Source: Erysipelothrix inopinata (lineage in GTDB: Bacteria; Bacillota_I; Bacilli_A; Erysipelotrichales; Erysipelotrichaceae). From it: a stretch of DNA of 32,000 nucleotides. The notes below the pieces were generated by a model. It made no database searches. It saw only the letters and a list, made by a program, of their open reading frames with translations, and was not told the origin of the DNA. The DNA lies in assembly GCF_014396165.1 (NCBI RefSeq), contig NZ_CP060715.1, positions 1,050,001 through 1,082,000 of the forward strand. Direction: 5' to 3'. The position numbers and the translations under genes are program-made. Shown here one piece after another: positions 5,748-27,500 of the stretch; within the stretch, counting starts at the first letter, position 1; each line of letters begins with the position of its first letter.

Positions 5748-6929
5748 ATGTTATTAAGTTTAGCGTTAATATTTATGGTTGGGTATCTACTTGCTGCTGT
5801 ATTTAAGAAGTTGAGATTACCTGAACTTATTGGTTATTTACTTTCGGGGATGATTCTAGGTCCCTATGGTATGAATGTATTGGATGCCTCATTATTAGAT
5901 ATTGGTGGTGATATAAAGCAAATTGCATTGTTGATTATTTTAACTCAAGCAGGTTTATCATTGGAACTTGATGACTTTAAAAAAATGGGGTCTAAAGCTG
6001 TATTTATGAGTTTTGTGCCCGCTTGTTTTGAGATTACTGCAACATTCTTTCTATCAAAGTGGTTGTTTAACTTTAATACAATTGATGCATTACTTTTAGG
6101 TACAATTATTGCTTCAGCGTCACCTGCAGTGATTGTTCCAAAAATGTTGAAGTTAATGAAAGAGGGGTATGGTGTCAAGAAAGGTGTTCCACAACTAGTA
6201 CTTACAGGAGCATCCGTAGATGATGTGTTTAATATTGTATTATTTACGTCTGTATTAGGATTCCAAGCGAACTCAGGTGTTTCTGCCATGGATTTTGTAA
6301 TGATTCCAGTAACGATTCTCTTGGGCATCGGCTTGGGAATCGTGATGGGATTTGCTGTCAGTTATGTGTTTAAAAGAATTAATACTTCAATCCAAATAAA
6401 AACTATTTTAGTTTTGAGTATTGGTTTTGTTCTCTTGACAGTGGAGCCTTTAGTTGCAAACTATTTACCATTCTCAGCACTAATTGCAGTTATGGCTATG
6501 GGAGTTACTCTCTTAAAAACCTATCCTGAAGATGCGAAAGCAATCTCCCATCAGCTGTCAAGACTTTGGGTTGGAGCGCAAGTTCTTCTCTTTGCACTTG
6601 TTGGTGCGGCAGTTAACCTTGGTTACGCAAGCAAAGCAGGATATCTGGCTATCATCATGCTAGTATTAGCACTTGTTGTGAGAAGTATTGGAGTCATGGT
6701 ATGTGTTAGTCGAAGTGACTTCACACGAAAAGAAAAAATATTTGCTGCAATAGCGGGTACTCCAAAAGCAACCGTTCAAGCTGCAATAGGGGGAATACCA
6801 CTTGCAATGGGACTCCCAAATGGGGAAATGATTCTAGCAATTTCTGTAATCGCCATCCTGTTCACAGCACCAGTAGGGGCAATACTAATTGATCTTACTT
6901 ATAAGAAGTTTCTAACTCATGATATTTAA
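5748..6929 (+). CDS. Cation:proton antiporter (Na+/H+ exchanger family, CPA type)
   Basis: 393 aa with about 11-12 TM helices. The N-terminus LPELIGYLLSGMILGP and the general pattern are typical of the Na_H_Exchanger family. The SD is AAAGGAGAG. Confidence 0.8.
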   Translation: MLLSLALIFMVGYLLAAVFKKLRLPELIGYLLSGMILGPYGMNVLDASLLDIGGDIKQIALLIILTQAGLSLELDDFKKMGSKAVFMSFVPACFEITATFFLSKWLFNFNTIDALLLGTIIASASPAVIVPKMLKLMKEGYGVKKGVPQLVLTGASVDDVFNIVLFTSVLGFQANSGVSAMDFVMIPVTILLGIGLGIVMGFAVSYVFKRINTSIQIKTILVLSIGFVLLTVEPLVANYLPFSALIAVMAMGVTLLKTYPEDAKAISHQLSRLWVGAQVLLFALVGAAVNLGYASKAGYLAIIMLVLALVVRSIGVMVCVSRSDFTRKEKIFAAIAGTPKATVQAAIGGIPLAMGLPNGEMILAISVIAILFTAPVGAILIDLTYKKFLTHDI

Positions 6930-7549: not shown

Positions 7550-8890
7550 ATGAAAAAGAAACGTTGGATTCGATTTCTAGTGGCATTACTACTAATTGGA
7601 TTGACTCAAGTTTCACCACAATTGGTTGAAGCAGAGACCCTTACTGAATTATGTACTACTGACAAAAATGATGCTCGATGTCAAAACTTTAAAAAATTAA
7701 CCGAGACAAAAGCAAATCTTGATGACATCAATAAAAACTTAGATAGTTATGCAGAAGAGTTAACACTCTACCAACAATCAATGGTGGCAATGCAAGAGGA
7801 AATTACTCAGAAAGAATCTGGAATTGAAGCTTTGAATGAAAGTATAACCAAGTCTCAAGAAGAAATTCAGGTGCTTGATGAAAAGGTAACAGTGAAAAAA
7901 GATGAAGTAGCGAAACAAATGGTTCGAAGTCAATCGACAATGCGTGTGAATAACTACTTTGAGTTCCTTTTTGATTCCAGAGATTTTGCTGACATTATAC
8001 GTCGCATTGAAGCCGTGAATATTATTCAAAGAGCAAACCGTGAAGTAGTGAATGAATATCATGAAGCATTGAACGAATTGAATACTAAGCATACTCAGTT
8101 AGAAACGGATCAAGCTACGTTGATTCAAGAAAAAGAAACTCTAGAAAAGGATTATGAATCAGCATCTATTGCGAAAGAAAATATTGGCGTTATTGTGAAA
8201 GAATTGATGGTTCAAAAGGAATCACTCATGATTGAAGAAGAAACGATTAATAGTAAAGTAGCTATAGATGAACAAAAGTTTCAAGGAGTAACACCAGGTA
8301 ATGCAACACCTGCACCAAGTGGAGGTCGACTATCGAGACCTCTCGCAACAGGATATTGGGTATCAGCCGGTGTATGGTCCTATCCATGGGGTGGAACACA
8401 TCTTGGGGTAGATCTTGCACCAGTGAATGGAAACGTGGGAATGAATCTTTTGGCTCCTGGGAATGGTATTGTAGTAGGAACTCATGGTGGTTGTCCAACT
8501 TGGGGGTCCTATGGAAGTCGTTGTAACGGTGGCTATGGAAACTATATGAATATGATTGTTAGTGATGGTGTAACATCCTATGGTATTCTCTATGCACATC
8601 TTATGAGTGGAAGCTTCACAGTGCCCGCAGGAACCGTAGTTCAAACTGGAGATGTCGTAGGTCGTGTTGGTTCCTCAGGGAGCTCTACAGGTCCCCATGT
8701 TCATGCAGAAGCCTATAATCTCGGTAATATATCAATTCAAGAAGCTTACAGTAGATGGAATGGTAGTAATACTTTCAGTACTGGTAGTGCCTCTAGTAAT
8801 GGCTTAAACCATCGTTGTTCAGTTTCAGGAGTACCTTGTCGAGAGAATCCTCAAGAAATTTGGAATTACCAATATGGTGCTTCGTACTAA
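7550..8890 (+). CDS. Secreted peptidoglycan metalloendopeptidase, M23 family, with N-terminal coiled-coil (EnvC-like architecture)
   Basis: A signal peptide and about 230 aa of heptad-rich coiled coil precede the catalytic domain. The M23 motifs are HLGVDLA (HxxxD) and GSSGSSTGPHVHAE (HxH). Confidence 0.85.
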   Translation: MKKKRWIRFLVALLLIGLTQVSPQLVEAETLTELCTTDKNDARCQNFKKLTETKANLDDINKNLDSYAEELTLYQQSMVAMQEEITQKESGIEALNESITKSQEEIQVLDEKVTVKKDEVAKQMVRSQSTMRVNNYFEFLFDSRDFADIIRRIEAVNIIQRANREVVNEYHEALNELNTKHTQLETDQATLIQEKETLEKDYESASIAKENIGVIVKELMVQKESLMIEEETINSKVAIDEQKFQGVTPGNATPAPSGGRLSRPLATGYWVSAGVWSYPWGGTHLGVDLAPVNGNVGMNLLAPGNGIVVGTHGGCPTWGSYGSRCNGGYGNYMNMIVSDGVTSYGILYAHLMSGSFTVPAGTVVQTGDVVGRVGSSGSSTGPHVHAEAYNLGNISIQEAYSRWNGSNTFSTGSASSNGLNHRCSVSGVPCRENPQEIWNYQYGASY

Positions 8891-8974
8891 TCACCCCATT
8901 AATGAAAGATATTTCATATAAGACATCAACTAAAAAAGATATGCTATATTAAAAATATAGATTAAGGTGATAGT

Positions 8975-9487
8975 ATGGGTCGAAATGGAACTACCAAGGT
9001 AATCCCTAGTGGTCAAAGTTTTAACGGATACGAAAAATATGCTCCTTTGTTTGGAAGTTTAGCCATCTTAGGTGTTGGTTTTGTTATGTTAAAGTATCCA
9101 ACACTCTTAAATGGGAGAACACCTTTTACTAATTTTATTGTGTATCTTGTATTAATGTTGGGTTTGATTGGATTGGGCTATTCTGTTGTCATCCACATAC
9201 CACGTATGAATTGGAATGCAAGTCAGAGCCGTATTGAACTGTATCAGAAAATGGTGGTTATCTATCAAGATCGACAGATAACTGAAATACCATTTGGAGA
9301 TATTGATGCTATTGAAGTATCAAAGACAAAAGTTCCAATGAATCGTACTGGAATCCATGACTATCTTGTAGATATCTACGATATTCAACGTCATAGAATT
9401 TTCCAATTTCATACCAGTCATTATCCCAATGCATTAGAATATTTGGAGTTATCATCACTCCAGTCATGTATAAAAATTATAAATTAA
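8975..9487 (+). CDS. Hypothetical membrane protein (2 TM helices plus a soluble C-terminal domain)
   Basis: The SD AAGGTGA ends 5 nt upstream of the ATG. The 170-aa ORF has two hydrophobic helices. I recognise no family. Confidence 0.55.
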   Translation: MGRNGTTKVIPSGQSFNGYEKYAPLFGSLAILGVGFVMLKYPTLLNGRTPFTNFIVYLVLMLGLIGLGYSVVIHIPRMNWNASQSRIELYQKMVVIYQDRQITEIPFGDIDAIEVSKTKVPMNRTGIHDYLVDIYDIQRHRIFQFHTSHYPNALEYLELSSLQSCIKIIN

Positions 9488-9496
9488 TACGCTTAC

Positions 9497-9549
9497 AGCT
9501 AAAAAAACATGAAAAAAACAAGATTTTTTCCAATTTTTTTAGCTTTTTT
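9497..9549 (+). terminator. A/T-rich two-tier hairpin plus T run, possible terminator
   Basis: agctaaaaaaa (9497-9507) pairs with tttttttagct (9534-9544) and is followed by tttttc. The pairing is only A/T, so the stability is doubtful. Confidence 0.3.
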
Positions 9550-9571
9550 CTAGGATTGAAAAAGAGGGTTA

Positions 9572-9580
9572 TGCTAAAAT
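9572..9580 (+). promoter_or_regulatory. Candidate extended -10 promoter element for guaA (TGcTAAAAT)
   Basis: tgcTAAAAT lies about 85 nt upstream of the guaA ATG. I found no convincing -35 at 17-nt spacing. Confidence 0.35.
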
Positions 9581-9662
9581 ATTTGTGACGCATCAGGACC
9601 ACAAATTGTGAGGAAACCCTCAAGAAAGTTACCCAATGATGTTGAAAAGGAGGCCCATTTAG

Positions 9663-11195
9663 ATGGCAAATAAAATCATTGTGTTAGATTTTGGTTCTCA
9701 GTATAATCAACTTATCGTAAGACGCATACGCGACTTAGGGATTTACAGTGAACTCTTAGATAATGAAATTACAGCTGAAGAAATTCGTGCAGATAAAGAT
9801 ATTGCAGGGATTGTACTTTCAGGAGGTCCAAACTCTGTTTATGAAGAGAACGCTTATCATATTGACCAGGAAATATTTAATCTTGGACTCCCTATTTTGG
9901 GAGTGTGTTATGGAATGCAGCTTATGGCACATCAAAATGGTGGACGAGTTGAATCTCATTCAAAGAAGGAATACGGTTTAGCACCTATTAATATTCTCAA
10001 AGAGAATCCATTAACCCATAACCTACCTCAAACATTCAATGTATGGATGAGCCATGGTGATCAAGTAAAAGCAGTACCTGAAGGATTTGAAGTCTATGCT
10101 TCATCAGATAATACCGATATCGTAATGATGGGAAATGTGGAGAAACATCAATATGGCATTCAATTCCATGGAGAAGTAAGAAACACAGAACACGGTATTG
10201 ATATCATCGAAAACTTTGTTTCAGATATCTGTCATGCTGAACGGACTTGGTCAATGGAAAACTATGTTGAACAACAAACAGAACTAATTCGTGAACAAGT
10301 CGGAACAGATCAAGTTATTTGTGCTTTATCTGGTGGTGTAGACTCCGCAGTCGTAGCCGCACTACTTCACCACGCAATTGGTGACCAACTCGTATGTATC
10401 TTTGTAGATCACGGACTCCTTCGTAAAAATGAAGCAGACCAAGTTGTGGAAGTATTTAGAGATCACTTCAAAATTAACTTAATTAAAGTGGATGCTCAAA
10501 AACGATTCCTTGATAAACTCGCTGGTGTTGATGATCCTGAGCAAAAACGTAAAATCATTGGTACAGAATTCATCGCTGTATTTGATGACGAGACTAAGAA
10601 ACTAAAAGATGCGAAATGGTTAGCACAAGGAACTATCTATGCTGATGTCATCGAATCCGGTACTAAAACTGCACAAACGATTAAGTCACACCATAATGTC
10701 GGTGGCTTACCTGAAGATATGCAATTTAAACTAATCGAACCGCTACGTTCACTTTTCAAAGATGAAGTTCGTAAACTTGGACTCGTACTCGGTTTACCAG
10801 AACATATTGTTCATAGACAACCATTCCCAGGTCCTGGACTTGCAATCCGTATCATTGGTGATATTACCGAAGATAAAATTAAAAAAGTTCAAGACAGTGA
10901 TTGGATCTTCCGTGAAGAGATTGCGAATGCAAGTCTTGAAAGTGAGATTTGGCAATACTTTACGGTGCTAACAAATATGAGATCGGTTGGCGTTATGGGA
11001 GATCAAAGAACCTACGATTATACCTTAGCACTTCGTGCGGTTACCTCGATTGATGGGATGAGTGCTGATTGGGCACGTATTCCTTATGATGTAATTCAAA
11101 AGGTGTCAGTACGAATTGTGAATGAGATTGAGGGAATTAATCGTGTAGTGTATGATGTGACCTCAAAACCACCCGCAACAATTGAGTGGGAGTAA
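9663..11195 (+). CDS. guaA: GMP synthase (glutamine-hydrolysing)
   Basis: The GATase1 domain shows LGVCYGMQL and the H/E pair region (IQFHGEV). The ATP-PPase P-loop is SGGVDSAV, and the C-terminal dimerisation domain ends ...KPPATIEWE. The SD is AAAGGAGG. Confidence 0.97.
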
Positions 11196-11201
11196 GAGAA
11201 T

Positions 11202-11244
11202 AAGAGCAGTAAGTCCTTTATTAATAAGGGTTTACGCTCTTTTA
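11202..11244 (+). terminator. guaA rho-independent terminator (long imperfect hairpin)
   Basis: aagagc-a-gtaa-gt-cctt ... aagg-gt-ttac-gctctt followed by ttt. Confidence 0.6.
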
Positions 11245-11424
11245 CTAATGCAGGATATTTATTCTTTCTACCCATATGACAAGCTCCTCATTTTTGCACT
11301 ATTGTCTTATAACAATTGTACGAATACAAGATGCTTAGCTTTTTATTGTGTCCCATTACCTGGGGTCAGTACCTGAGTTATCGCTTTTTGTATTCCCCCA
11401 CTATTTTACACAATCATTACACTT

Positions 11425-12627
11425 TGGTTGACACAAAAGATAAGAAGTTCGTGGTAAACTAAAGGAAAACGAGCAAATACAAACTCACGAAGAAAACGAA
11501 GAGAGTATACAGAGGACTTTAAAAGATAAATGGTTCAGTTGTAAAAAAATGGTAAGGCATCATAAGAAATTCTTGAAGAGTATGACTTAACTGCTTCTAC
11601 TTTCCATAAATGGGTTAAGCAAGATGAACTATCCGGATCATTTAAAGAACGTGATAATTTAACTCCCGAACAAAAAGAAATAATTGAATCGAAAAAGCGA
11701 TTGAAACATGCAGAAATGAAAAATGATATTTTAAAGCAAGTAGCTCTGATTATTGGATGAAAATAATTGTAATCAAATATCAAATCTTATGCGCACAAAT
11801 ATCCAATAAGATCTATGTGTAAAATACTCGATATTAGCATATCAGGTTTCTATAAATATAAAATTAGCAAACCGAAAATCGATACTGAAACACAACGTGT
11901 AGTAAGAATCTTTAATGATAATCAAAAAACCTATGGATCACGTTGTATCCGAAAAGAATGCAGACGTGAAGGAGTCGTGGTATCAAGAAGACGTATCGCA
12001 CGTATCATGCAGGTTGAGGAGTTAATCTCAACGTGTGTACTTGCCCATTATAAAGTTCATAAATAAACAGTTAACGAAGATACTGTAGCAAATGAAGTTA
12101 ATAGACAATTCGATGGAAGAGATAGCTATGAGGTTCTCGTCAGTGATCTAACTTATGTAAGAGTAGATGGAAGTTGGAATTGTATTTGTATGATTCTTGA
12201 TTTACACAATCGGGAAATTGATGGTTACAGCTCGGTTCTAGTAAAAATGTATTTTTAGTCATGGAGGCATTTTCAAGAATCAAAAAAAAATTATCAAAGG
12301 TACAATACTTCCCTGCAGATAGAGGTAATGAATTTAAAAAATAAATTAATAAATGAAACACTAAAACATTTAAAATAAAACGGTCCATGAGCAATAAGTG
12401 TACACTATATGATAATGCCGTAGCAGAAGAGATATTTAAAGCTATAAAAACGGAATTTGTATAGCAAAATTCATTCAAATCACTTGATTAGTTGGAAAAG
12501 AAACTATCGGCTTATATTTGGTGGTTTAATAATAGAAGATTACACTCAGCGCCTGGATATTTCCTCCAGTTGAGCACAAAGATAATAACTCCTTATAAAA
12601 AATGTCCACTAAAGTGTTGACATTCCA
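11425..12627 (+). mobile_element. Decayed IS3-family insertion sequence (orfA/orfB pseudogenes with many stops and frameshifts)
   Basis: The + strand translation gives an IS3 OrfA-like product: KRREYTEDFKR*MVQL*KNGKAS*EILEEYDLTASTFHKWVKQ...EMKNDILKQVALIIG. It then gives an OrfB-like product: YPIRSMCKILDISISGFYKY...QKTYGSRCIRKE...VSDLTYVRVDGSWNCICMILDLHNREIDGYS ... ADRGNEF ... YDNAVAEEIFKAIKTEF ... WFNNRRLHSAPGY.SPVEH. There are at least 6 in-frame stops or frame changes. The end points are approximate (TGG... at 11425, ...TTCCA at 12627). Confidence 0.8.
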
Positions 12628-12968
12628 TAGTATAAATTCTGGTCGGTGTTTTATTTAACTAATACTGTGTCTAATAAATGGCAGTTAATATAGTGATTTA
12701 AGATATAATGATAGTAACAGGTAGAAAAATATCAAATATATCTGTTAGAATAAAGCTACAATGATGAATTTCAATAAAAAAAGTTTATCTTAAAATGAAC
12801 AAGTGGATAGAGTGCCACTCGATTAAGACATTTACATCTATAAGTAGAACAAACAAAATGGTACTCAACAGCAATTTTCTTCATTTCAGTAATATGTAAA
12901 TAACACTAGTATTGCTACTTAATTTTACTCATTAGGAGAAGTAATAATTTCAAACAAGGAGAACAAAA

Positions 12969-15461
12969 ATGTACCGAAAAATATCAGAGAAATTATATGA
13001 AAAATTTGTAGTTAACCATATGGCTTGTGCAATTCAGGGAAAAGATGGAAAATATTATACTAAGTATATTAATGTAAGTAGTAAAATCATCGAATCTATG
13101 CTTAAATCAAAAAGCTCGATGGGAATATATCAGCAACTAAATGGAAATGTAAAATGGGTTTGTATTGATTTTGACTGTAAAGACAAAGAATATCCTAATG
13201 TTGAGTTGATGTACGAAGAGATAGTAGATGACTTCATATTTAAATTAGATAGTTTAAATATTTCATATTTGAAGGAATACTCAGGAAGACGAGGAATTCA
13301 TATATGGATAATATTTGATGAGTTTATATCTAAAAGAGATGCCTATAGAATAGTTTCGTATCTTATTTTAGATATTAAATACGATAAAGAAAAATATGGG
13401 ATTGATTTATTTCCTGCAACACCGACATCTGCCGGTAATAAGGTAGGCAAGCAAGTAAAGCTACCATTATCAACACATAAAATGGGAAACCAATCGTTTT
13501 TTTTTGAAAATGAGCTTGATTTAAAAAAAGAAATAAATATAGATGAACAAAGTGAAATTTTAGAGAAATATACGTTTCAAACTCCTTCACAACTGATTGC
13601 ATTACTTAATGAAGATTCGACAAATTCTCAATCGGTATTTAAGAAGCATGCGATTAAATCTGAAAAAGATACTAATATATCGGTTTTCTTTAGAGAAGTT
13701 TACTCTATTTTATCTGAATTAGAACCATATGAGAGACTCTTTACTAAAATTAAAAATGGTCAATTAGAAAATGTAGATTATTTAGTGCTTTATGGAACCA
13801 GTACAGGATTTTCTAGTGATGATTCTTTTTTTGAATATTTGATGGAGGATAATCCACTGTATAATGAAGAAATTTCCCGCAGAAAAACGAATAAAATAAA
13901 ACAGGGATATGGGATACTCACGCTGGGGAGCTTATTTGATAGATATTGTTGTAAACTTAGCGAGAATCTTAATCCTCTAGATACTGCTGTAGATTTCTTT
14001 ATGAGAAAAACTAATGATAAATACTTGATGTATATAACTGATATTAAAACCGAAACGGAAATTGATATATTAAGTAATATATCATATACAGCCAGCAAAG
14101 AAAAAAATTATTTTTTTGAAAATGACGAAGTTATTAATCCAAACATATATATTGATTTTATGAAAAATCAAGTTAGAACCAATGAATTTATAGTTTCTGA
14201 CATTGAAGAGATATGTTTTGGGAAAAATAAACATTCAGAAAATATCGAATTTTATAGGTATATTAGAAAAGAAAAGGATAAGGATAGACAACTCGTTTCG
14301 TTAGGCTATAAGGATCGAATTTTAACAACACAGTTAGCTCTGAATATTTCCTATGCACTTAATCGATTTCAAAACATTAAGTCATTTAGTTACAATATCA
14401 ATTTTTCATCTAAAAGATACATATTCTTTAATTGGTTCAATTCATGGAAAGAATATACAAAACGTATAAATACATACTTAGAAATCCCCTTTTTTGATGA
14501 TTATGCTTTGATTCAGTTAGACTTGAAGAAATTCTACGAGAACATTGATTTTATTACTCTGTCTGAAAAATTGAATAAGCTAACTGTTGATGATAGTGTT
14601 TATTATCAGTTAAAATATCTTGTTAATTATAATGAAAAACTCATGTATGAGTTGACAAAATCAAGAAAAGGGGTGCCGCAAGGTCCAGCTTATGCAAGAA
14701 TAATTTCTGAGCTATTTATTCAATTGATTCTAGATGAAGCTTTAAAAAACCATTCAAGTTCAACTGTTTTAAGATATGTCGATGACATGTGCATAATTTG
14801 TCCTAAGGATGATGTCGATGATATGTATAATGAATTAAAAATATTACTCTTAAAGAATGGATTACCATTAAATAATAATAAAACAAGAATTTATTATGAA
14901 TTAAGTGATTTAACAGAAGAAGAAAAAAGAACAATTAATTTTGGTAATAAAATGTCTTATGAGTTTAATACATCTAACGAAAATATGTTGCAAACTAATG
15001 AAGAAAAGAGTGACTTAATTTCAGACAAGTTGAGTAACTACAATATTGATGATTGCAGCTTATTGTTTTCAACATCTACGGATGATTACTATAAAAAAAT
15101 GTACTTTATAAGAAATGCAAAAAGTATATTTTCAGAGGAATTAGGAAGAGGAAGTACATTCATGAAGATATATGCATTTCTATTTTCTAGTGATGAACTT
15201 GTGGAACTCTGTGTAAAGAATAAACTTTTTAAAAATTTAAAAAGTGAATCATTAAATTTTAGTGTTTTTATTAATCATTTATTCATGTTCATTGATCAAG
15301 ACCTTATTTCTGATAAATCCTTATTATTAATTTGTGAATCATACTTGATGAAACTAGATATTGACGAAGTTATCGTGCAAAACATTGATGATTTACAAAC
15401 ATTAAATGCTATCAAAAAACATGTAGAAATGACTGCTAAAGAGGATGTGAACTATAAGTAA
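12969..15461 (+). CDS. Fusion protein: N-terminal archaeo-eukaryotic primase-polymerase (AEP/PrimPol) domain plus reverse transcriptase (UG/Abi-like, YVDD) plus alpha-helical C-terminal region
   Basis: The SD AAGGAGA ends 6 nt before the ATG.
- AEP motifs: WVCIDFD (DxD, aa 63-69), SGRRGIHIWIIF (sGxGxH, aa 105-116), GIDLFP, and KQVKLPLSTHKMG (aa 161-173).
- RT motifs: KDRQLVSLGYKDRILTTQLAL (motifs 1/2, aa 438-458), LIQLDLKKFYENID (motif A, aa 514-527), SRKGVPQGPAYARIISELF (motif B, aa 565-583), RYVDDMCIICP (motif C, YVDD at nt 14775-14786), and LPLNNNKTRIY (motifs D/E).
- Residues ~650-830 are helix-rich, resembling the alpha-repeat tail of UG/Abi RTs. Confidence 0.85.
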   Translation: MYRKISEKLYEKFVVNHMACAIQGKDGKYYTKYINVSSKIIESMLKSKSSMGIYQQLNGNVKWVCIDFDCKDKEYPNVELMYEEIVDDFIFKLDSLNISYLKEYSGRRGIHIWIIFDEFISKRDAYRIVSYLILDIKYDKEKYGIDLFPATPTSAGNKVGKQVKLPLSTHKMGNQSFFFENELDLKKEINIDEQSEILEKYTFQTPSQLIALLNEDSTNSQSVFKKHAIKSEKDTNISVFFREVYSILSELEPYERLFTKIKNGQLENVDYLVLYGTSTGFSSDDSFFEYLMEDNPLYNEEISRRKTNKIKQGYGILTLGSLFDRYCCKLSENLNPLDTAVDFFMRKTNDKYLMYITDIKTETEIDILSNISYTASKEKNYFFENDEVINPNIYIDFMKNQVRTNEFIVSDIEEICFGKNKHSENIEFYRYIRKEKDKDRQLVSLGYKDRILTTQLALNISYALNRFQNIKSFSYNINFSSKRYIFFNWFNSWKEYTKRINTYLEIPFFDDYALIQLDLKKFYENIDFITLSEKLNKLTVDDSVYYQLKYLVNYNEKLMYELTKSRKGVPQGPAYARIISELFIQLILDEALKNHSSSTVLRYVDDMCIICPKDDVDDMYNELKILLLKNGLPLNNNKTRIYYELSDLTEEEKRTINFGNKMSYEFNTSNENMLQTNEEKSDLISDKLSNYNIDDCSLLFSTSTDDYYKKMYFIRNAKSIFSEELGRGSTFMKIYAFLFSSDELVELCVKNKLFKNLKSESLNFSVFINHLFMFIDQDLISDKSLLLICESYLMKLDIDEVIVQNIDDLQTLNAIKKHVEMTAKEDVNYK

Positions 15462-15489
15462 AATAAACGAGTTATATAAAGCTGTCTAC

Positions 15490-18054
15490 TTGAGTGAGGA
15501 ACCCCAAAATATAATCATATTATTACAGGAGTTTAACGGTTATTATTCTGAGGATTTGATTGAAGATCCAATATTAACAATAAAAACTTTCATACTAATG
15601 ATTCGTAAAATTACGAATCATTCAATTAATGAAGAATACCAGAGTGATCTTGATAAGGAGATTATTAATGCTTATTCAAATATCGAAAATATACCGATAA
15701 ATGATCCAATTAATATCGAGACCAAACTTTTTTCTTTCATTAAAAAAGTTAATAATCTTGATGGGAATATAAACGCGTTAGAACAACTATCTACAGATAT
15801 ATCAAAGTTTTCATTAGAGCTGGATGGTATTAATAGAATTTTCACTGTGAGAAATAATGAAAATAAATTAGTTTTTCCTTTGGGAAATATAATGAAGTAT
15901 GTTTTGGAATCTGACTTAGAAAAATTCACTAGAATGGGTGAAAAAGAAATTGGAATTATTTTGCTTTCTCTAAGCATTTTTCGAGACACAGAGAAATATA
16001 AAGAGAATGTTGCAGAACTTAATAAATTATTAAAATCCTGTAATATTGTGCTCTTTGACTACATTTCGGAAGCTGATCGTGATGAAAATTTTGTGAAAAA
16101 TTTAGTTGATAATGGATTAATTGTAATTTCGGCAAAATCAAAAAATAAGATTTATATCAGAACAACAAAAAGTAAGGACTATTTTGATGGCGGTGATCAT
16201 TATGTTCAATCAGAAACTAATATCAAGGGTGAGGAAATTGCTTGGTTTGTTATAAAAGAAATTAATAATTATGAATTTAAATCAGGGAATGATATTATAA
16301 AAGAAAGAAATCCAAAACAAATACTTAGATTACTTGATTTTGTAATAGGTGATTTACATTATAATGTATTTGCAAAAGATGCTTTTTACTTCTGCAATCA
16401 GGAGTTGTTTATTACTAATGATTTTACATTTAGAGATGAGGTTATTATTTTTGATAAAAAATCTCATCGAATGAATTCATCAGATGTTGTGTATAAATTA
16501 ATAGAAAACTATAGACTACAATTTTTTTACGATAATCTTTCATCATTTAATAATGTTACTTTAGGATTTATCGCCGAATTGATTTTGAAATGTGGAATTT
16601 GCACAGATGATTTATTGGATTTAACTAACGAAAATGATACGGTCGGGCTTCAAGAACGTATCCTCACTAACTACATAGACAGTGGAGAAATTTCGCTGAT
16701 AAATCTTGTAGATTTTCTGACTATATGGTTAGCAGATTTAGAGTATACTGCAGAAAAAAATAACTTTAAAAGTAAACATGTTAAAGATTTAAAAGGATTT
16801 TATCCAATACAGTTTTCTGATAATTTCTATTCCGTAGTTACTTTTGCTTATATTGAAAATTTTGATTTTTTAAGTTTGCAAAGGCAAAGAGATGTTTTCT
16901 CGATAGAAAAATCTGATACACCAATCAATTACAATGATAATCGATTAGGCTTCTTAGATAGAGATGGGAATATTTATAATGATAATGGTGAAAGTAAAGA
17001 TATTACATATAGCTACTACCTAGAGATTGGAGATGAAAAAATCGTTAATGAGGATATAGATCAACTTGGAAAATTATTCAGAAAAATAAGTATTGAAAGT
17101 GCTTGCTATGTTCCGTTAGGCATTTTTCTAAGTTTGAATAAAGTCGGTATTGATCAGATTCTAAAAATTATGGATTTACAAAAATCTGGACTGTGTTTCG
17201 ATTTTGACACTACGATTTGCGAGTCAATATATTTCTTCAGGCTTGTTAATCACTTAGTATATTACGAAATTTATGATCAAGAATCTGTAGAAGCATTTGT
17301 AAAGTTAATAAGCGTTTGTCATGATATTATCGATTTTAATGTAATACTGTCAAAACATATTAAGAATTTAGATAAAAATTGCTTATTACTAACAAAAGAC
17401 CATTTAGGAAATGACTCAACAGCTCAAATGGCTATTAAAGATTACTGTACTAAGCCAAATCAAAGAAACAATTTAATAGGATTTTCTCAAACAATTTCAC
17501 TAAAAAAAGAGAATAATAGTTATAACTTCAATAGTAAGGATTCAAAAATAAACAGAATAGAGATTGTGTTTGATTTGACTCAATCAGGAAAAAGCACTCT
17601 TGAGACATTAAACCACTATATGGTTGATGAAATTAGCGATGGATTCAGGCCTAGAATTATTTGTGAAGATAACTATGTTTTGGTTACTGATATTTGCTGT
17701 TTAAATGAGTGTCCTTTAATTATTGAAGTATTTGCTGGGAGTGTAGATTCAAAAGAAAAAATAGAAACTTTTATGAATGGTTTTTCAATCTCTAATTGGG
17801 AAGTGAATTATTTAACAATGATAAGTAAAATTGTAGATGATAACTTTGTGAATTTGTGGAAGACTGCATATCCTAAAGTAACATCAATGTACGGTGATAT
17901 CGGACATGATAATAGAAATGGACTACTTAAAATTGGCAATTTTCCAGTAATTAGAGAGTATAACCAGCCTAAGATGAATATCTATGCTAATGATGAAATG
18001 AATTCAAATCAAATATTCAACATATTAATTAAGAAGAAAGAATTACAATACTAG
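15490..18054 (+). CDS. Large (854 aa) uncharacterised protein, probable partner or effector of the PrimPol-RT
   Basis: This long uninterrupted ORF is in the same orientation, 28 nt after the RT stop, with the same extreme AT bias. The start is uncertain: TTG at 15490 is the first canonical start, neither it nor the first ATG at 15598 has an SD, and the frame is open from 15451. I recognise no family. There is only one weak motif hint: IEIVFDLTQSGKSTLE (aa 690-705) resembles a PRTase PRPP-binding loop. Confidence 0.7.
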   Translation: MSEEPQNIIILLQEFNGYYSEDLIEDPILTIKTFILMIRKITNHSINEEYQSDLDKEIINAYSNIENIPINDPINIETKLFSFIKKVNNLDGNINALEQLSTDISKFSLELDGINRIFTVRNNENKLVFPLGNIMKYVLESDLEKFTRMGEKEIGIILLSLSIFRDTEKYKENVAELNKLLKSCNIVLFDYISEADRDENFVKNLVDNGLIVISAKSKNKIYIRTTKSKDYFDGGDHYVQSETNIKGEEIAWFVIKEINNYEFKSGNDIIKERNPKQILRLLDFVIGDLHYNVFAKDAFYFCNQELFITNDFTFRDEVIIFDKKSHRMNSSDVVYKLIENYRLQFFYDNLSSFNNVTLGFIAELILKCGICTDDLLDLTNENDTVGLQERILTNYIDSGEISLINLVDFLTIWLADLEYTAEKNNFKSKHVKDLKGFYPIQFSDNFYSVVTFAYIENFDFLSLQRQRDVFSIEKSDTPINYNDNRLGFLDRDGNIYNDNGESKDITYSYYLEIGDEKIVNEDIDQLGKLFRKISIESACYVPLGIFLSLNKVGIDQILKIMDLQKSGLCFDFDTTICESIYFFRLVNHLVYYEIYDQESVEAFVKLISVCHDIIDFNVILSKHIKNLDKNCLLLTKDHLGNDSTAQMAIKDYCTKPNQRNNLIGFSQTISLKKENNSYNFNSKDSKINRIEIVFDLTQSGKSTLETLNHYMVDEISDGFRPRIICEDNYVLVTDICCLNECPLIIEVFAGSVDSKEKIETFMNGFSISNWEVNYLTMISKIVDDNFVNLWKTAYPKVTSMYGDIGHDNRNGLLKIGNFPVIREYNQPKMNIYANDEMNSNQIFNILIKKKELQY

Positions 18055-18850: not shown

Positions 18851-18911
18851 CTTAAAGAAGACACCCGAAATGAATTAAAACAGGCACTTCAAAAAGTGAG
18901 TAGTTTTTTCA

Positions 18912-19047
18912 ATGGTTGGAAGCAATAAATATCCAGAAGAAGTAAAAGAACAGGTTGTTAAAGAATACTTGAACGGAATAAAAAGAATAAAAGAAATAGC
19001 TGAAGAAATGAGAAAGAGGATTGATTTGATCCATTTACTGATATAAT
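18912..19047 (+). pseudogene. Fragment of an IS3-like transposase OrfA (HTH part only)
   Basis: MVGSNKYPEEVKEQVVKEYLNGIKRIKEIAEEMRKRIDLIHLLI* fits the pattern M..R.KYS.EFK..VV..YL.G.S...IA.EY.I. It is truncated after about 45 codons. Confidence 0.45.
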
Positions 19048-20753: not shown

Positions 20754-21266
20754 ATGACAAATGAATTGCAACCACTATCATTGTTATTTCAAAATAGATT
20801 ATTTCGTATACCGGATTACCAACGAGGGTATGCATGGCAGCAATCTCAATTAATTGATTTCTGGGATGACGTTACTAATCTTCAGAAAGAACGATACCAC
20901 TACATTGGATTATTATCTCTAAAGGAACTTGAAAAAAAGGAAATAGAGACATGGGGCAGCGACATATGGATGGTTGAAGTAGGCTTTACAGCATGCCATG
21001 TAGTGGATGGTCAACAACGTCTCACTACATTTATAATATTACTAAATGAACTCATAGAAATAGCAAAATTAAATAACCCCGATAAGTCCGAAGAAGATAT
21101 CGTCCTAGGATTTGAGACCTTAAAAGATATTAAAAAAAAGTATATTTGTCGTCACCGACCACCAAATAATCAGATAACCACCTATCTTTTTGGTTATGAG
21201 GTAGATAATCCTAGTTCGGATTATTTGAAATATAGAATATTTGGTGAACCATATTCTGGGGCGTAA
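20754..21266 (+). CDS. GmrSD-like type IV restriction enzyme, N-terminal fragment (first part of the DUF262 domain), cut off by a frameshift
   Basis: FRIPDYQRGYAWQQSQLIDFWDD and VVDGQQRLTTF are the DUF262 (ParB/Srx-like NTPase) signature motifs. The ORF stops at 21264-21266, while the -1 frame continues without a stop into the next ORF. Confidence 0.8.
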   Translation: MTNELQPLSLLFQNRLFRIPDYQRGYAWQQSQLIDFWDDVTNLQKERYHYIGLLSLKELEKKEIETWGSDIWMVEVGFTACHVVDGQQRLTTFIILLNELIEIAKLNNPDKSEEDIVLGFETLKDIKKKYICRHRPPNNQITTYLFGYEVDNPSSDYLKYRIFGEPYSGA

Positions 21267-21292: not shown

Positions 21293-23563
21293 ATGAATGC
21301 AAAAAAATTCTTTAATGAAAACTTAGTTGAGCTTTATAAGAATGAAGGTATTAAAGGATTTAATGAACTTTATTCAAAAGTTACGAAGAAGTTGATGTTT
21401 AACATTCATGTTATTGATGATGAATATGATGTTTTCGTAGCTTTTGAAACAATGAATAACCGAGGGAAAAAACTCACAAATTTAGAACTTTTAAAAAATA
21501 GACTTATATATCTTACCACCCTATATCCAGATGATTTTTTTGATGAACTCGATAAAATCGATTTACGTAAGCAAATTAACAATGCATGGAAAGAAGTGTA
21601 TTATCAGCTAGGAAGAAATGAAAAAAATGCCCTGTCGGATGATGAATTTCTGAGAGCACATTGGATCTGTTATTTTTCCTATTCTCGTAAAAAAGGTGAT
21701 GACTACATTAATTTTCTCTTAAATAAATTTTCTTCAAAAAAAATATTTGAAATGAAAATAGTAGATTCAAATGATTTTGAGGATTCGTTTTCTGGATTTA
21801 CTTATGATGATGAAGAAACAATAATTGAAAATGATGACTTGGAAACACTTGAACTATCAAAACTTACACCTAATGAGATTGATTCTTATGTCAATAGTCT
21901 AAAGGATTTGTCGATGTACTGGTATGATACATACTTTCCTAATGAGAGCACGAATCTTACACCTTATGAAAGAACATGGGTGGATAAATTAAATAGAATC
22001 GGTATTGTGTATTTTAGACCGCTAGTAATGGTAATTATTAGCAAGAGAGACTTAACCGAGGAACAACGAATTCATGCATTTCGAACAATTGAAAGATTCA
22101 TTTTTATCTGCTTCAGAATTGGCTCAAACCAAGCAACATTCAGAAGTAGTGAATTTAATCGATTAACAAAAAAATTATACTGGAATGAAATAGATTTAGA
22201 TGTGGTAATTAATGAAATCGAAGCGACAACTAATGCTAATACGGACTATGCTCTACAAAACTATGTAACGAAAATTGAGAAAAACTTTGACAGTAAACTA
22301 GGTTACTATGGATGGAATACTGTTCGATACTTCTTGTATGAATATGAAATAAGTTTGGCGAAGAAAAATAATATCGAAAAACTGGATTGGAATCTATTTA
22401 CAAGAAGTGAAAGGGACAAGGTTTCCATAGAACATATACTTCCGCAAAAACCATCAAAATACTATTGGAGAAACACTTATAGACAATTTGATTCTGATGA
22501 GATAATATCGCTGTCAGGATCTCTTGGAAACTTGCTCCCACTTTCACAAAGCATAAACTCATCCCTACAAAACGATAGCTTTGAAGATAAAAAAATATCA
22601 AAGCTAGATGGTAGACGAGGTTATGAGAATGGCTCTCATTCTGAAATAGAGGTTTCTAAATATGAGGATTGGACTGCGGAAATTATTTATCAAAGAAGCA
22701 TTAAACTCTTGAATTTCATGGAAAAGCGATGGAAATTTAGCTTTAGTGCTGATCAATTTAAGAGGCTTGTCTACGTTTCATTTGTGCGCGATGGAAGAGA
22801 AATACCTAAAGACCTTCTTAAAGAAAAGGTGCTAGAAGAAAACTCAAAATCGTACACGGATCTAGATAATTTTTCTTCGAATGAATTAGGAAATAAACAG
22901 CTTTCTTTTTGGATTGATTTTATTAATTATTGTAAAAGTATAGGTAGAGATAATCTCGTTAACAGAAAACCGTTTGCACAAAACTGGTATGATATAACAG
23001 TTCCCAATGCACAATTTCATTTATCTTTTACAATTACAAGTAGTAAATACATCACACTTCTGATATATGCATATGATCTAGACATGTTTGTTAAACTAGA
23101 GGAACGAAAAGATGAAATTGAATACCATTTTGGAGATAAACTGAACTGGTATTCATCGAGAACCGGTAGTACCGCTAAAAGAATTCTATACAAACAAGAA
23201 TACGATATTTTTAATCCATCAAAAAAACAAGAAATATTTGATTGGATGATTAAAAAGTATGACTTAATCTATAATGCACTTATTGAGGTGGAATTAATAA
23301 ATGCAGGAGATTCACCTGAAAGTCGATTCTCTTTTCTGAAACAATACCTACAAGAGAAAAACGATGAGATTATTATATTATCGTTCAGTCAAATTGAAGA
23401 AATTATCAATTCTAAACTTTGTGATTCTGCTTATAATTACAACGCATATTGGAAATGTTCTAAGACGCATGTTTTACCTAATTTAATATTTGAGAGCGGC
23501 TACGATATAAGCAATATAAGTTTAATTGATGAGAAAATAGTTTTAAAGAAGCGAATACAATAA
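21293..23563 (+). CDS. GmrSD-like type IV restriction enzyme, main fragment: rest of DUF262, DUF1524 His-Me nuclease, DUF4268-like domain and a small C-terminal domain
   Basis: FETMNNRGKKLTNLELLKNRL is the end of DUF262. VSIEHILPQKP...GNLLPLSQSINSSLQNDSFEDKK is the DUF1524 HNH-like motif. NWYDITVPNAQFHLSFTI...LNWYSSRTGSTAKRI is DUF4268-like. The frame is open upstream to 21248 and reads GVNETYYTKNL before the annotated Met. Confidence 0.8.
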   Translation: MNAKKFFNENLVELYKNEGIKGFNELYSKVTKKLMFNIHVIDDEYDVFVAFETMNNRGKKLTNLELLKNRLIYLTTLYPDDFFDELDKIDLRKQINNAWKEVYYQLGRNEKNALSDDEFLRAHWICYFSYSRKKGDDYINFLLNKFSSKKIFEMKIVDSNDFEDSFSGFTYDDEETIIENDDLETLELSKLTPNEIDSYVNSLKDLSMYWYDTYFPNESTNLTPYERTWVDKLNRIGIVYFRPLVMVIISKRDLTEEQRIHAFRTIERFIFICFRIGSNQATFRSSEFNRLTKKLYWNEIDLDVVINEIEATTNANTDYALQNYVTKIEKNFDSKLGYYGWNTVRYFLYEYEISLAKKNNIEKLDWNLFTRSERDKVSIEHILPQKPSKYYWRNTYRQFDSDEIISLSGSLGNLLPLSQSINSSLQNDSFEDKKISKLDGRRGYENGSHSEIEVSKYEDWTAEIIYQRSIKLLNFMEKRWKFSFSADQFKRLVYVSFVRDGREIPKDLLKEKVLEENSKSYTDLDNFSSNELGNKQLSFWIDFINYCKSIGRDNLVNRKPFAQNWYDITVPNAQFHLSFTITSSKYITLLIYAYDLDMFVKLEERKDEIEYHFGDKLNWYSSRTGSTAKRILYKQEYDIFNPSKKQEIFDWMIKKYDLIYNALIEVELINAGDSPESRFSFLKQYLQEKNDEIIILSFSQIEEIINSKLCDSAYNYNAYWKCSKTHVLPNLIFESGYDISNISLIDEKIVLKKRIQ

Positions 23564-24520: not shown

Positions 24521-27500
24521 TTAATTCTCTTTATATTTCTTTTTGCCAAGAACAATTAGAACGAATCCGATTAGTACATAAAAGTAATTCATGTAATTTA
24601 TACCAATACCTGTGTTAGGTAAATTAGGTTCAGGAGTTGTTGGAGTTGGATCTTCAGGTTTTTCTGGAGTAACTTTCACAACTTCTTCTTTTTCATATAC
24701 ATAGGTAACTACTTGTTCAGAACCAGTAAATGTACCAGATGCGTTTTTAGGTACTTCAGTAAGTTTGTAGTTTTCAACATTCTTAGCAGTTGCTAAATAT
24801 GGTGTTGTAATCTTTCCTGTAAGTACTTCTGATGGTGATACAGTGTTACCGTCTGTATCAACGTAGTTCACAATAACGTTCGCACCATCAACAAGATCAT
24901 ACACATATGTAACGGTTTGAGCTTCAGTTGTAAATGTTCCTGATGCATTTGTAGGTTGTTCTGTTAATGTGTAGTTTTTAATATCTTTTTGAACACTTGT
25001 ATATGGTGTTGTAGCTTTACCATTTAATGTTTCGGTGTCTGCAATTTCATTTCCATCGATGTCAACATATTTTACAGTGACTGCAGCACCGTCTACAAGA
25101 TCGTATACATAGGTTACTGTTTGCTCAGTATCTGTAAATGTACCAGTTGCATTATTAGGTTTTGTAGTTAATGCATAATTCTTAATAACTTTTTCTACTG
25201 ACGTATATGGTTTTGTAATCTTACCATTTAGGGTTTCAGTATCCGCAATCTCATTACCTTCAGTGTCAACATAGTTGACAGTAACTTTTGCACCATCAAT
25301 AAGGTCATAAACATAAGTAACTGTTTGAACTTTGTTTGTGAATACGCCTGTTGCATTGTCAGGTTGAGCTGTTAGTGCATAATTTGTAATTGTCTTTTCT
25401 GATGCTGTATAAGCAGTTGTGATTTTACCAGATAAGGTTTCTGTATCCGCAATCTCGTTACCATCGATATCAACGTATTTTACTGTTACATTTGCACCTG
25501 CAATTAAGTCATAGACATAAGTGACAGTTTGTTCTGTATCAGTAAATGTACCGGATGCGTTGCTTGGTTTTGAAGTTAATGAATAGTTTTCGATTGCCTT
25601 TTCTACTGAGGCGTAAGCAGTCGTAATCTTACCTGATAGTGTTTCAGTATCATCAATTTCATTACCATCGATATCAACATATTTTACCGTAACTTTAGCT
25701 GCATCTACAAGATCATAAACATACGTTACTGTTTGTTTAGTGTCTTTGAATGTACCCGTAGCATTAGCAGGGACTTCAACTAACTTGTAGTTACCAATCG
25801 TTTTTTCTACTGAAGCATAAGGTGTCGTAATCTTACCATTCAATGTTTCTGTATCTGCGATTTCGTTACCTTCTGTATCTACATATAATACGGTAACAGG
25901 TTCTCCTGCGATTAAGTCATAGATGTAAGTTACAGTTTGTTCAGTATCTGTAAATGTACCCGTAGCGTTTCCAGGTTGAGCTGTGAGTGCATAATTCTTA
26001 ATTGATTTTTCTGCTGCAGTATAAGCTGTAGTAATTTTACCGGATAGTGTTTCAGTATCAGCGATTTCATTACCGTCAGTATCAACATATTTAACTGTTA
26101 CATTTGCGCCTGCAATTAAGTCATAGACATAAGTTACGGTTTGTTCTGTATCTGTAAATGTACCTGAAGCATTTTCAGGTTGAGCTGTGAGCGCATAATT
26201 TGTAATTGATTTTTCTGTTGCAGTATAAGCGGTAGTAATTTTACCCGATAGTGTTTCGGTATCGGCAATCTCATTACCTTCCGTATCAACATAATTAACT
26301 GTTACATTTGCACCTGCAATTAAGTCATAGACATAGGTTACAGTTTGTTCAGTATCTGTGAATGTACCTGTAGCGTTGTCTGGTTGAACTGTAAGGGCAT
26401 AATTTGTAATAGTCTTCTCTAAAGCTGTGTATGGTGTAGTGATTTTACCATTCAAGGTTTCAGAATCTGCAATCTCATTGCCATCAGTATCAACATAATT
26501 TACAGTAACTTTAGCTGCGTCTACAAGATCGTAAACATACGTAACAGTTTGAGCTGTGTCTGTAAATTTACCAGTAGCATTAGTAGGCTGTTTTGTAAGC
26601 GTATAGTTCGTAATTGTTTTTTCTGTAGCAGTATAATCAGTTGTAATTTTACCACTCAAAGTTTCGGAATCCGCAATTTCATTGCCGTCAGTATCAACAT
26701 ATTTAACGGTAACATTAGCTCCGGGAATAAGGTCATAGATATAAGTTACGGTTTGTACTTGATCCGTAAATGTACCTGTAGCATTATCTGGTTGAACAGT
26801 TAATTCATAGTTTTCGATTGTTTTATCGGTCGTGAAGTAATGAGCAGTAACATCGCCTGAATAGGTTTCATCCTCTGCAATTTTATTACCATCAATATCA
26901 ACATACTTCGCGATGACATCAGCACCTCTATTTAAGTCATAAACAAATGTGACTGTTTGAGCAGTATCTGTAAACTTACCTTTTGCACTTCCTTGAGTTT
27001 CTACAAGGTGATAGTTGGTGATAGTTTTTGCGACTGCTTCATAATCAGAATTAATTTTACCTTTTAAAGTGTCCTCTCCTGAGATTGGGTCACCTTTTAA
27101 GTTTACATATTTAACAGTAACGTTTTCGCCGTCAGCAGCTTCATAAACGTAGGTAATTTCTTCATGATCGATAGGAAGCTTGCCAGATGCATTGGCAGGT
27201 GTAGTTTTTAAAGTATAGTGTTTATTGGTAACTGGAGAAGATGTATAAGCATCTCCTGCGAAACCAGTGATTGTTGTTGAGTCTGCAATTGGATTACCAT
27301 CAGTATCAACATGATTTACTGTTACACCACCGGAAGTTACCGCTTTTAAACTAATTCCGGTAAATTCTGCGATTGTTTCTAGAGTATCATATGATTCGTT
27401 TTTTAGATTAATCGTAACTTTTGTACCCGAAGGTTTGAAGTAAATCGATTTAGAACTAGTGCGACCTTCGGCAGTTGAACCTTCGCCAGCAGCAGCCGTT

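Follow-up and report, generated by a model that had tools for sequence, protein, structure and literature searches.

What kind of system is formed by two large neighbouring genes of Erysipelothrix inopinata, the first of which joins a primase to a reverse transcriptase (RT)? The pair lies on an island 3′ of guaA, in a stretch of 32,000 nucleotides that was analysed as a whole and is referred to here as the window (contig NZ_CP060715.1, positions 1,050,001 to 1,082,000 of the forward strand). The first open reading frame (ORF1) encodes a primase-polymerase (PrimPol)–RT fusion, the second (ORF2) a protein of 854 amino acids. An earlier reading of the bare sequence, hereafter the original prediction, held the two genes to be an undescribed RT-based defence cassette with an orphan second protein. 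Our analysis leads to another answer. With a probability of roughly 85%, the pair is a two-gene UG10-small system, i.e. the split form of the defence-associated reverse transcriptase (DRT) system DRT7, carried by a horizontally acquired island.

This class of enzymes has been described. UG10 RTs carry an N-terminal PriS/AEP (archaeo-eukaryotic primase) domain, and they are accompanied by an unknown domain of ~ 800 residues which is fused to the RT in UG10-large and encoded by a separate coding sequence (cluster 1038) in UG10-small (Mestre et al. 2022, PMC9226505). In the same work, UG10-large of Escherichia coli protected against T2 and ZL-19 and was named DRT7. More recently, cryo-electron microscopy (cryo-EM) addressed E. 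coli DRT7 and the UG10-small core of Streptococcus salivarius (Figiel et al. 2026, bioRxiv 10.64898/2026.02.16.706125). The RT domain performs protein-primed synthesis of poly(dT), which the primase domain copies into poly(dA). The priming tyrosine is located on the first helix of the alpha-helical repeat (alpha-Rep), and a C-terminal arch domain covers the primase site. In the two-gene form of S. salivarius this arch domain is the partner, encoded by a separate ORF.

Since UG10-small was thus already defined with the same gene content, the Erysipelothrix pair is a divergent example of a described system. The original prediction had staked its claim of novelty on the absence of a named system with these two genes, and UG10-small is such a system. 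Its remark that UG10/DRT7 carries a primase-like domain was correct.

The PrimPol-RT core

ORF1 and ORF2 are co-oriented and full length, with no internal stop codons (coordinates in Table 1). ORF1 starts with an ATG located 8 nt 3′ of an AAGGAG sequence. GenBank lists it as H9L01_05160 (WP_187534941.1) and names its product of 830 amino acids a reverse transcriptase domain-containing protein. The original prediction had let the cassette begin at 12628, where no ORF starts; this adds 341 nt of upstream DNA.

The assignment of ORF1 is carried by the PADLOC profile RT_UG10_small, which matches the protein from end to end (E 4.6e-291, 966 bits; residues 1-820 aligned to profile positions 4-823/824). 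The profile RT_UG10_large also matches (E 5.8e-126) and covers just positions 1-816 of its 1688. The best profile outside UG10 is RT_UG36 with an E-value of 4.5e-20. Judged by these profiles, the RT-like domain belongs to UG10 and not to other UG/Abi, retron, group II intron or CRISPR RTs. The UG10 match is continuous through residues 186-511, the linker region between primase and RT, where a PriL-CTD-like domain is expected in UG10 proteins. The fusion of an AEP domain to a YVDD-type RT, as originally proposed, is therefore upheld by Pfam (AEP-TOTE and RVT_1) as well as by PADLOC.

Conservation was read from 97 aligned UG10 proteins. In the AEP domain, whose nearest solved relative is a CRISPR-associated Prim-Pol (PDB 7NQF, E 2e-12), the motifs D67-F-D69, S105-GRRGI-H111 and K164-LPLST-H170 are present. 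The invariant residues comprise D67, D69, S105-G-R-R-G-I-H111, D146, K164, P166-L-S168 and H170 of the primase and D518 and Y603-V-D-D606 in the RT-like domain. Arginines R433, R440, R450 and R577 are invariant as well. The primase motifs had been recognised in the original prediction, which placed the two catalytic aspartates one residue too early, at positions 66 and 68.

Tyr664 is the predicted protein-priming residue because of its conservation (tyrosine in 95 of the 97 proteins) and because of its position. It follows the YVDD aspartates by 58-59 residues, a spacing close to the 60 residues that separate D631 (the position of the D631N mutant) from the priming Tyr691 in S. salivarius UG10S.

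Several other known systems were considered and rejected. In sequence, TOTE and CRISPR-associated primase-polymerases stand nearest to the N-terminal AEP domain. The NCBI product name of one ORF1 copy derives from the TOTE AEP family of Pfam, and this name is the only link between ORF1 and TOTE. TOTE systems are defined by TPR-OB and TBP genes (TPR, OB, TBP, Effector; PMC12458937); neither a TPR-OB/cold-shock fusion nor a TBP-like domain was found in any neighbouring ORF. A CRISPR-associated PrimPol/RT is not supported, with the NCBIfam model PrimPol_Msp reaching 79.9 bits against a cut-off of 200 bits and no cas domains in the window. The group II intron RT/maturase model TIGR04416 scored 57.4 bits against a cut-off of 300 bits, and the Rfam scan of the window detected no such intron. 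A DRT that depends on a non-coding RNA (ncRNA) was also rejected: nothing relevant was returned by Rfam for the window, and Class 1 UG/Abi enzymes work without ncRNA (bioRxiv 10.64898/2026.02.16.706125).

The partner protein as a detached arch half

ORF2 resisted annotation. No matches were obtained in Pfam, PADLOC, NCBIfam or the PDB sequences, and PHROGs yielded a noise-level hit only (E 0.32). The original statement that the protein has no assignable motif set was a fair one, given this lack of matches. The same cannot be said of its description as an orphan. Word-indexed homologue searches, with ORF2 alone or with a profile of 35 sequences, returned just ORF2 itself because AT-rich, low-complexity words saturate the prefilter; an exhaustive scan with HMMER was therefore required. 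Among the 1.84 billion cluster representatives that it covered, 56 relatives were identified, of which 38 have E-values below 1e-10. Nearly all relatives are 850-950 amino acids long and are matched over their full length, at 22-29% identity to ORF2. Every family-invariant residue is present in ORF2. An AlphaFold2 (AF2) model built with 37 family sequences is confident (mean predicted local distance difference test score, pLDDT, 81; predicted TM-score 0.79). In this model the N-terminal half is helical, and mixed α/β modules come after it.

The start of ORF2 deserves comment. GenBank lists the gene as H9L01_05165, a hypothetical protein of 818 amino acids beginning at ATG 15598. The annotated start probably falls 36 codons too late, as the family alignments and the AF2 helices reach residues ~ 5-40 of the form that begins at TTG 15490. 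The 28-nt gap between the genes, noted in the original prediction, holds if this TTG is taken as the start. A Shine-Dalgarno sequence is absent at both candidate starts. In the relatives, by contrast, the partner ORF overlaps the stop codon of the RT gene.

What is this protein? In UG10-large, RT and partner regions are parts of a single gene of 1745-1879 amino acids, found in eight loci of our metagenome scan and on Bacillus plasmids (PADLOC RT_UG10_large, E = 0, positions 1-1687). The alignment of the partner family with ten C-terminal halves of UG10-large gave a probability of 98.3% in local mode of hhalign (E 1.2e-14, 630 columns) and 99.6% in global mode (E 2.5e-23, 801 columns). The alignment of ten sequences was decisive: hhalign against one UG10-large sequence reached a probability of 47.6% only, and neither BLASTP with ORF2 nor a plain hmmsearch with the partner profile detected the relationship to UG10-large proteins.

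In the joint alignment the two sets coincide in their most conserved residues. These include a PKD / LK(N) strand, R659 and a Y-x-T-x-x-G strand. Also shared are the motif hhhhD-x-x-x-S-G-x-S/T/Q (D695 and G700; hhhhD-x-x-I-S-G-x-Q in UG10-large) and the C-terminal motif R-x-x-N/S-x-P-K (R822, P827 and K828; R-x-x-S-x-P-K in UG10-large). On the strength of the hhalign matches and of these conserved residues, aligned in both sets, ORF2 is by sequence comparison homologous to the C-terminal (arch) half of UG10-large and a detached form of it. The partner is consequently not new either, being present in Mestre et al. 2022 (PMC9226505) and corresponding to the arch domain of Figiel et al. 2026. 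The DRT7 structure was not matched in the PDB sequences or in the Foldseek library of the PDB (entries to April 2026). A scan of viral contigs for the C-terminal half of UG10-large found nothing, and a search of plasmids found only the UG10-large genes of Bacillus and Peribacillus.

The two genes travel together. A metagenome scan with the RT alignment yielded 80 loci, 58 of which hold a complete RT of UG10-small size; in 50 of the latter, the sequence extends at least 2.7 kb downstream. A partner-family gene lies 3′ of the RT gene in all 50. In 48 it is an ORF of at least 700 amino acids, and more than 50 downstream ORFs are matched by the hidden Markov model of the partner family, each with an E-value of 1e-63 or better. 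The remaining two loci (L087 and L091) hold an interrupted partner gene. In L091 the gene is broken over two reading frames (around 9780-12145), and in L087 the open frame (8655-11015) lacks the first ~ 100 profile positions. Decay of these copies or faulty assembly may be the cause.

The same arrangement recurs in ten further loci, taken from genomes and assemblies. Three genomes, two metagenome-assembled ones of Lachnospiraceae and that of Dubosiella muris, carry an RT gene of 34% identity followed by an ORF of 850-887 amino acids that aligns to ORF2 (E 2e-15 to 3e-25; near full length in two of the three). Three additional RT homologues adjoin an unannotated gene of 848-884 amino acids. The reverse look-up started from three partner homologues, one of them among the weakest (E 3.5e-6), and each was found directly 3′ of a gene of ~ 830-874 amino acids. 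Two of these genes are recorded with AEP-TOTE and RVT_1; the third lies at a contig end and has no Pfam record. No third gene recurs across the loci, and the conserved unit therefore consists of two genes, as the original prediction had supposed. PADLOC v2 has profiles for the UG10 RT and none for the UG10-small accessory protein (ORF2 and its homologues in loci L003 and L007), and it therefore detects only the RT gene of such pairs.

Table 1. Positions of the pair, its motifs and the neighbouring elements in the window
Feature	Position	Strand	Basis and remarks
UG10-small core protein, 830 aa: AEP primase-polymerase, linker region, RT-like polymerase, predicted helical (alpha-Rep) tail	12969..15461	+	PADLOC RT_UG10_small
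AEP primase-polymerase catalytic domain, aa 30-185	13056..13523	+	Pfam AEP-TOTE E 8.4e-19; D67xD69, SGRRGIH111, D146, KLPLSTH170
RT-like palm and fingers, aa 512-652	14502..14924	+	Pfam RVT_1 E 1e-15
YVDD, aa 603-606	14775-14786	+	Y603-V-D-D606 and D518 invariant
Tyr664, predicted protein-priming tyrosine	14958..14960	+	Tyr in 95/97 aligned UG10 proteins
Spacer between ORF1 and ORF2	15462..15489	+	28 nt, no recognisable Shine-Dalgarno sequence; sequence read directly
UG10-small accessory protein, 854 aa (818 aa annotated), by homology the detached arch-domain half of DRT7	15490..18054	+	Partner family, hhalign, AF2
Motif IVFD695-LTQ-SG-K-ST in the C-terminal α/β module, resembling a phosphoribosyl pyrophosphate-binding loop	17563..17598	+	D695 invariant, G700 nearly invariant in family
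C-terminal motif I-R822-EYNQ-P-K	17950..17973	+	R822 invariant; N825, P827 nearly invariant
IS3-family element, degenerate, lying between guaA and the pair	11460..12620 (about)	+	HTH_Tnp_1, HTH_21, rve, rve_2/rve_3 in two frames, stop-interrupted
Pif1/RecD-like SF1 helicase, stand-alone, 474 aa	19256-20680	+	PIF1 E 2.6e-26; partial PADLOC matches PDC-S68, type IV RecD
GmrSD-type type IV restriction gene, two ORFs	20754-21266 and 21293-23563	+	Pfam

A possible mechanism and its competitors

The closest described relative is the S. salivarius system composed of UG10S (WP_104020715.1) and its accessory protein (WP_104020716.1). According to the published description, the Erysipelothrix pair resembles it in having a PrimPol-RT core of ~ 830-860 amino acids with a predicted helical tail, followed by a co-directional protein of ~ 850-900 amino acids. 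Catalytic motifs are shared with the UG10-small class of Mestre et al. In contrast to UG10-small relatives, the present pair resides in an Erysipelothrix host and shows a 28-nt gap with a TTG start instead of the usual gene overlap. DRT7, also termed UG10-large or PPRT (E. coli SC366 and LN97; ~ 1776 amino acids), contains a core homologous to ORF1 and a C-terminal half, described as the arch domain or as MID+CTD, homologous to ORF2. DRT7 is one polypeptide whereas the Erysipelothrix product is split after the predicted alpha-Rep region. Known defence, known triggers (lambda Gam and Bas63-035) and arch-containing structures pertain to the fused form only. Class 1 UG/Abi enzymes such as AbiK, AbiA, Abi-P2 and DRT4 likewise combine a thumb-less RT palm and fingers with a C-terminal alpha-helical repeat and perform protein-primed, untemplated synthesis. 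They differ in lacking the AEP primase and the arch partner, and their priming residue is found in loops and not on an alpha-Rep helix.

By analogy with DRT7, tyrosine-primed poly(dT) synthesis followed by primase-made poly(dA) would be expected here too. The RT-like domain would extend poly(dT) from Tyr664 without a nucleic-acid template. The N-terminal AEP domain would then make poly(dA), with this poly(dT) serving as template and perhaps as primer too, so that the product would be a protein-linked A/T duplex or fold-back DNA. ORF2, the detached arch half, could bind the core in trans, cover the primase site and restrain the enzyme. A phage cue would release ORF2, and product synthesis would then halt phage propagation. 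For the poly(dT) and poly(dA) steps there is in vitro evidence from the S. salivarius UG10-small core and from E. coli DRT7; we infer the same activity for ORF1 from ~ 30% identity and full conservation of catalytic residues. The gating by ORF2 in trans is modelled on the structure of the fused E. coli protein. Song et al. 2026 (bioRxiv 10.64898/2026.04.18.719102) report that DRT7 causes abortive infection and responds to a phage-encoded trigger, that its poly(T) synthesis is protein-templated and that its A/T products are palindromic. A role in defence is the best reading, by homology to DRT7.

A number of points weigh against this account. Identity to the nearest relatives is low (29-41% for ORF1, 17-29% for ORF2), and the activities are therefore deduced from homology. 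No ribosome-binding site is visible for ORF2, and the start codon of this gene is uncertain. The island is decaying, its IS3 element being dead and its GmrSD gene split, so that expression is not assured. The accessory protein of S. salivarius could not be expressed, nor its operon cloned (Figiel et al., bioRxiv 10.64898/2026.02.16.706125), and phage defence has been shown for the fused E. coli DRT7 and for no UG10-small system. Published reports conflict over a requirement of the arch half for polymerase activity and over cell killing by DRT7. E. coli UG10-large has also been linked to the tolerance of oxidative DNA damage (Kim et al., PMC12439943).

The last point leads to an explanation in which the cassette serves mainly DNA-damage tolerance or repair: an error-prone PrimPol would bypass oxidative lesions, the RT-like domain would proofread, and phage defence would be secondary. 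It draws on the work of Kim et al. 2025 (PMC12439943), which reports that disruption of E. coli UG10-large impaired the response to oxidative damage, that the PrimPol bypasses lesions and that the RT-like domain has an exonuclease activity. Phage defence, however, was shown in that same paper and in three others. Moreover, the surroundings of the pair, a mobile island of low GC content with a restriction gene nearby, are not a housekeeping context, and the genes flanking UG10-small change between loci and are frequently defence-like (SLFN/AlbA_2, NERD, AAA_15/AAA_21). We consider a primary repair function very improbable. Slightly less probable still is the notion that the pair is an inactive relic which has lost expression or function. 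The degenerate neighbours (the IS3 element and the GmrSD gene in two ORFs) would fit a relic, as would an ORF2 that lacks a Shine-Dalgarno sequence and, unlike its relatives, does not overlap the RT stop codon. Yet both ORFs have kept their full length without internal stops, all invariant catalytic and family residues are retained, and the model of ORF2 is confident (pLDDT 81).

A further explanation concerns the role of the partner, and it is the most interesting of the three rivals as several weak signals agree. Here, the C-terminal α/β module of ORF2 would be a phosphoribosyltransferase (PRTase)-like domain that binds nucleotides or phosphoribosyl pyrophosphate (PRPP). It might act as a sensor of infection, e.g. 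of changes in the nucleotide pool, or as an enzymatic effector, with the polymerase core upstream or downstream of its activity. We regard this as a tentative and rather unlikely alternative. In a Foldseek search with the AF2 model, uracil, orotate and adenine phosphoribosyltransferases (UPRT, OPRT, APRT) recur as top local matches (probability up to 0.98, 90-100 residues, 3.3-4.4 Å). The invariant hhhhD-x-x-x-S-G-x-S/T of the ORF2 family, common to UG10-large, has what we take to be the spacing of the PRPP loop (DD-x-x-T-T-G-x-T). The sole match of a profile of the C-terminal domain to the PDB sequences is a UPRTase (E 0.5). PRTase-CE is the only Pfam family that matches more than one member of the partner family (4 of 27, best E 0.0026), and in a library of viral structures a phage 'PRTase-CE domain-containing protein' ranks third (E 0.028, probability 0.94). 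A PRTase-like fold is mentioned neither in the main texts of the DRT7 papers nor in a supplementary file of Figiel et al. Each of these signals is individually non-significant, however: all Foldseek E-values are at least 0.06 and TM-scores range from 0.24 to 0.29. The PRTase-CE match is lost when full-length proteins are used as queries, and a wider profile that includes UG10-large sequences matches no PDB phosphoribosyltransferase. Of the two acidic residues of the PRPP loop, the first is not conserved, and Rossmann-like α/β folds easily match each other.

The island and the interest of the pair

The reading as a UG10-small system on an acquired island includes the surroundings of the pair. 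The AT bias relative to the flanking core genes, claimed in the original prediction, is confirmed: GC contents are 27.3% in ORF1 and 27.6% in ORF2, compared with 38.7% in guaA (9663-11195) and 35-36% in the flanks of the window. The mean over the whole stretch of 11.2-24.1 kb is 29.8%. Dead insertion sequence (IS) elements had been placed on both sides. This is right for the upstream IS3-family element; on the 3′ side of the pair only a short transposase-like fragment was found (E 1e-3). An IS110 remnant suspected by eye at 18.5-18.9 kb has no support in Pfam. No att-like direct repeat was found around the island. An imperfect inverted repeat of 58 nt (74% complementary; 11238-11295 and 18892-18949) encloses both the IS3 remnant and the UG10 genes, and its second arm falls within a short HTH_Tnp_1-like fragment. 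The repeat may be what is left of an earlier IS structure, composite or rearranged.

The type IV restriction gene said to be adjacent is indeed of the GmrSD type and nearby, but it is split into two ORFs and separated from the pair by the gene for a Pif1-like helicase, which is not conserved beside UG10-small elsewhere. The first GmrSD ORF covers positions 4-93 of GmrSD_N, while the second holds positions 137-198 of GmrSD_N, GmrSD_C, DUF4268 and DUF7662. The gene is probably a frameshifted pseudogene or the result of a sequencing error.

Some observations concern other parts of the window. The scan with Rfam and for tRNAs returned no tRNA and a single Rfam match, a fluoride riboswitch (RF01734; 5640-5707, + strand, 45 bits, E 1.4e-9) unrelated to the cassette. 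It lies directly 5′ of an ORF (5748-6929) which Pfam assigns to Na_H_Exchanger; the usual fluoride exporters are CrcB or EriC-F. A surface protein of 1155 amino acids with 13 MucBP repeats is encoded at 24521-27988 on the minus strand. It matches Pertussis_S1 (ADP-ribosyltransferase) of Pfam with an E-value of 6.8e-10, and no single stretch passes alone.

What does the pair contribute? The class of PrimPol-RT with partner was defined in 2022, structural studies of it date from 2025-2026, and as a discovery the Erysipelothrix pair adds little. Its remaining interest lies in the split form, which is experimentally uncharacterised, and in the weak phosphoribosyltransferase-like lead in the C-terminal module. 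The UG10-small accessory protein has so far defied expression and lacks an experimental structure, and the divergent, intact Erysipelothrix pair is a further candidate for experiments. The analysis also provides independent support for the partner as the detached arch half of DRT7, together with a confident model of this protein, and it names residues conserved in split and fused forms (D695, G700, R822, P827 and K828). We further put forward, as a doubtful proposal, that the conserved C-terminal module in the accessory or arch half of UG10, unresolved by cryo-EM in E. coli DRT7, is a PRTase-like ligand-binding or catalytic domain, and that UG10/DRT7 senses or alters a nucleotide or PRPP metabolite and in this way controls its synthesis of poly(dT) and poly(dA). 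If this were true, the split Erysipelothrix pair would allow the module to be studied as a separate protein.

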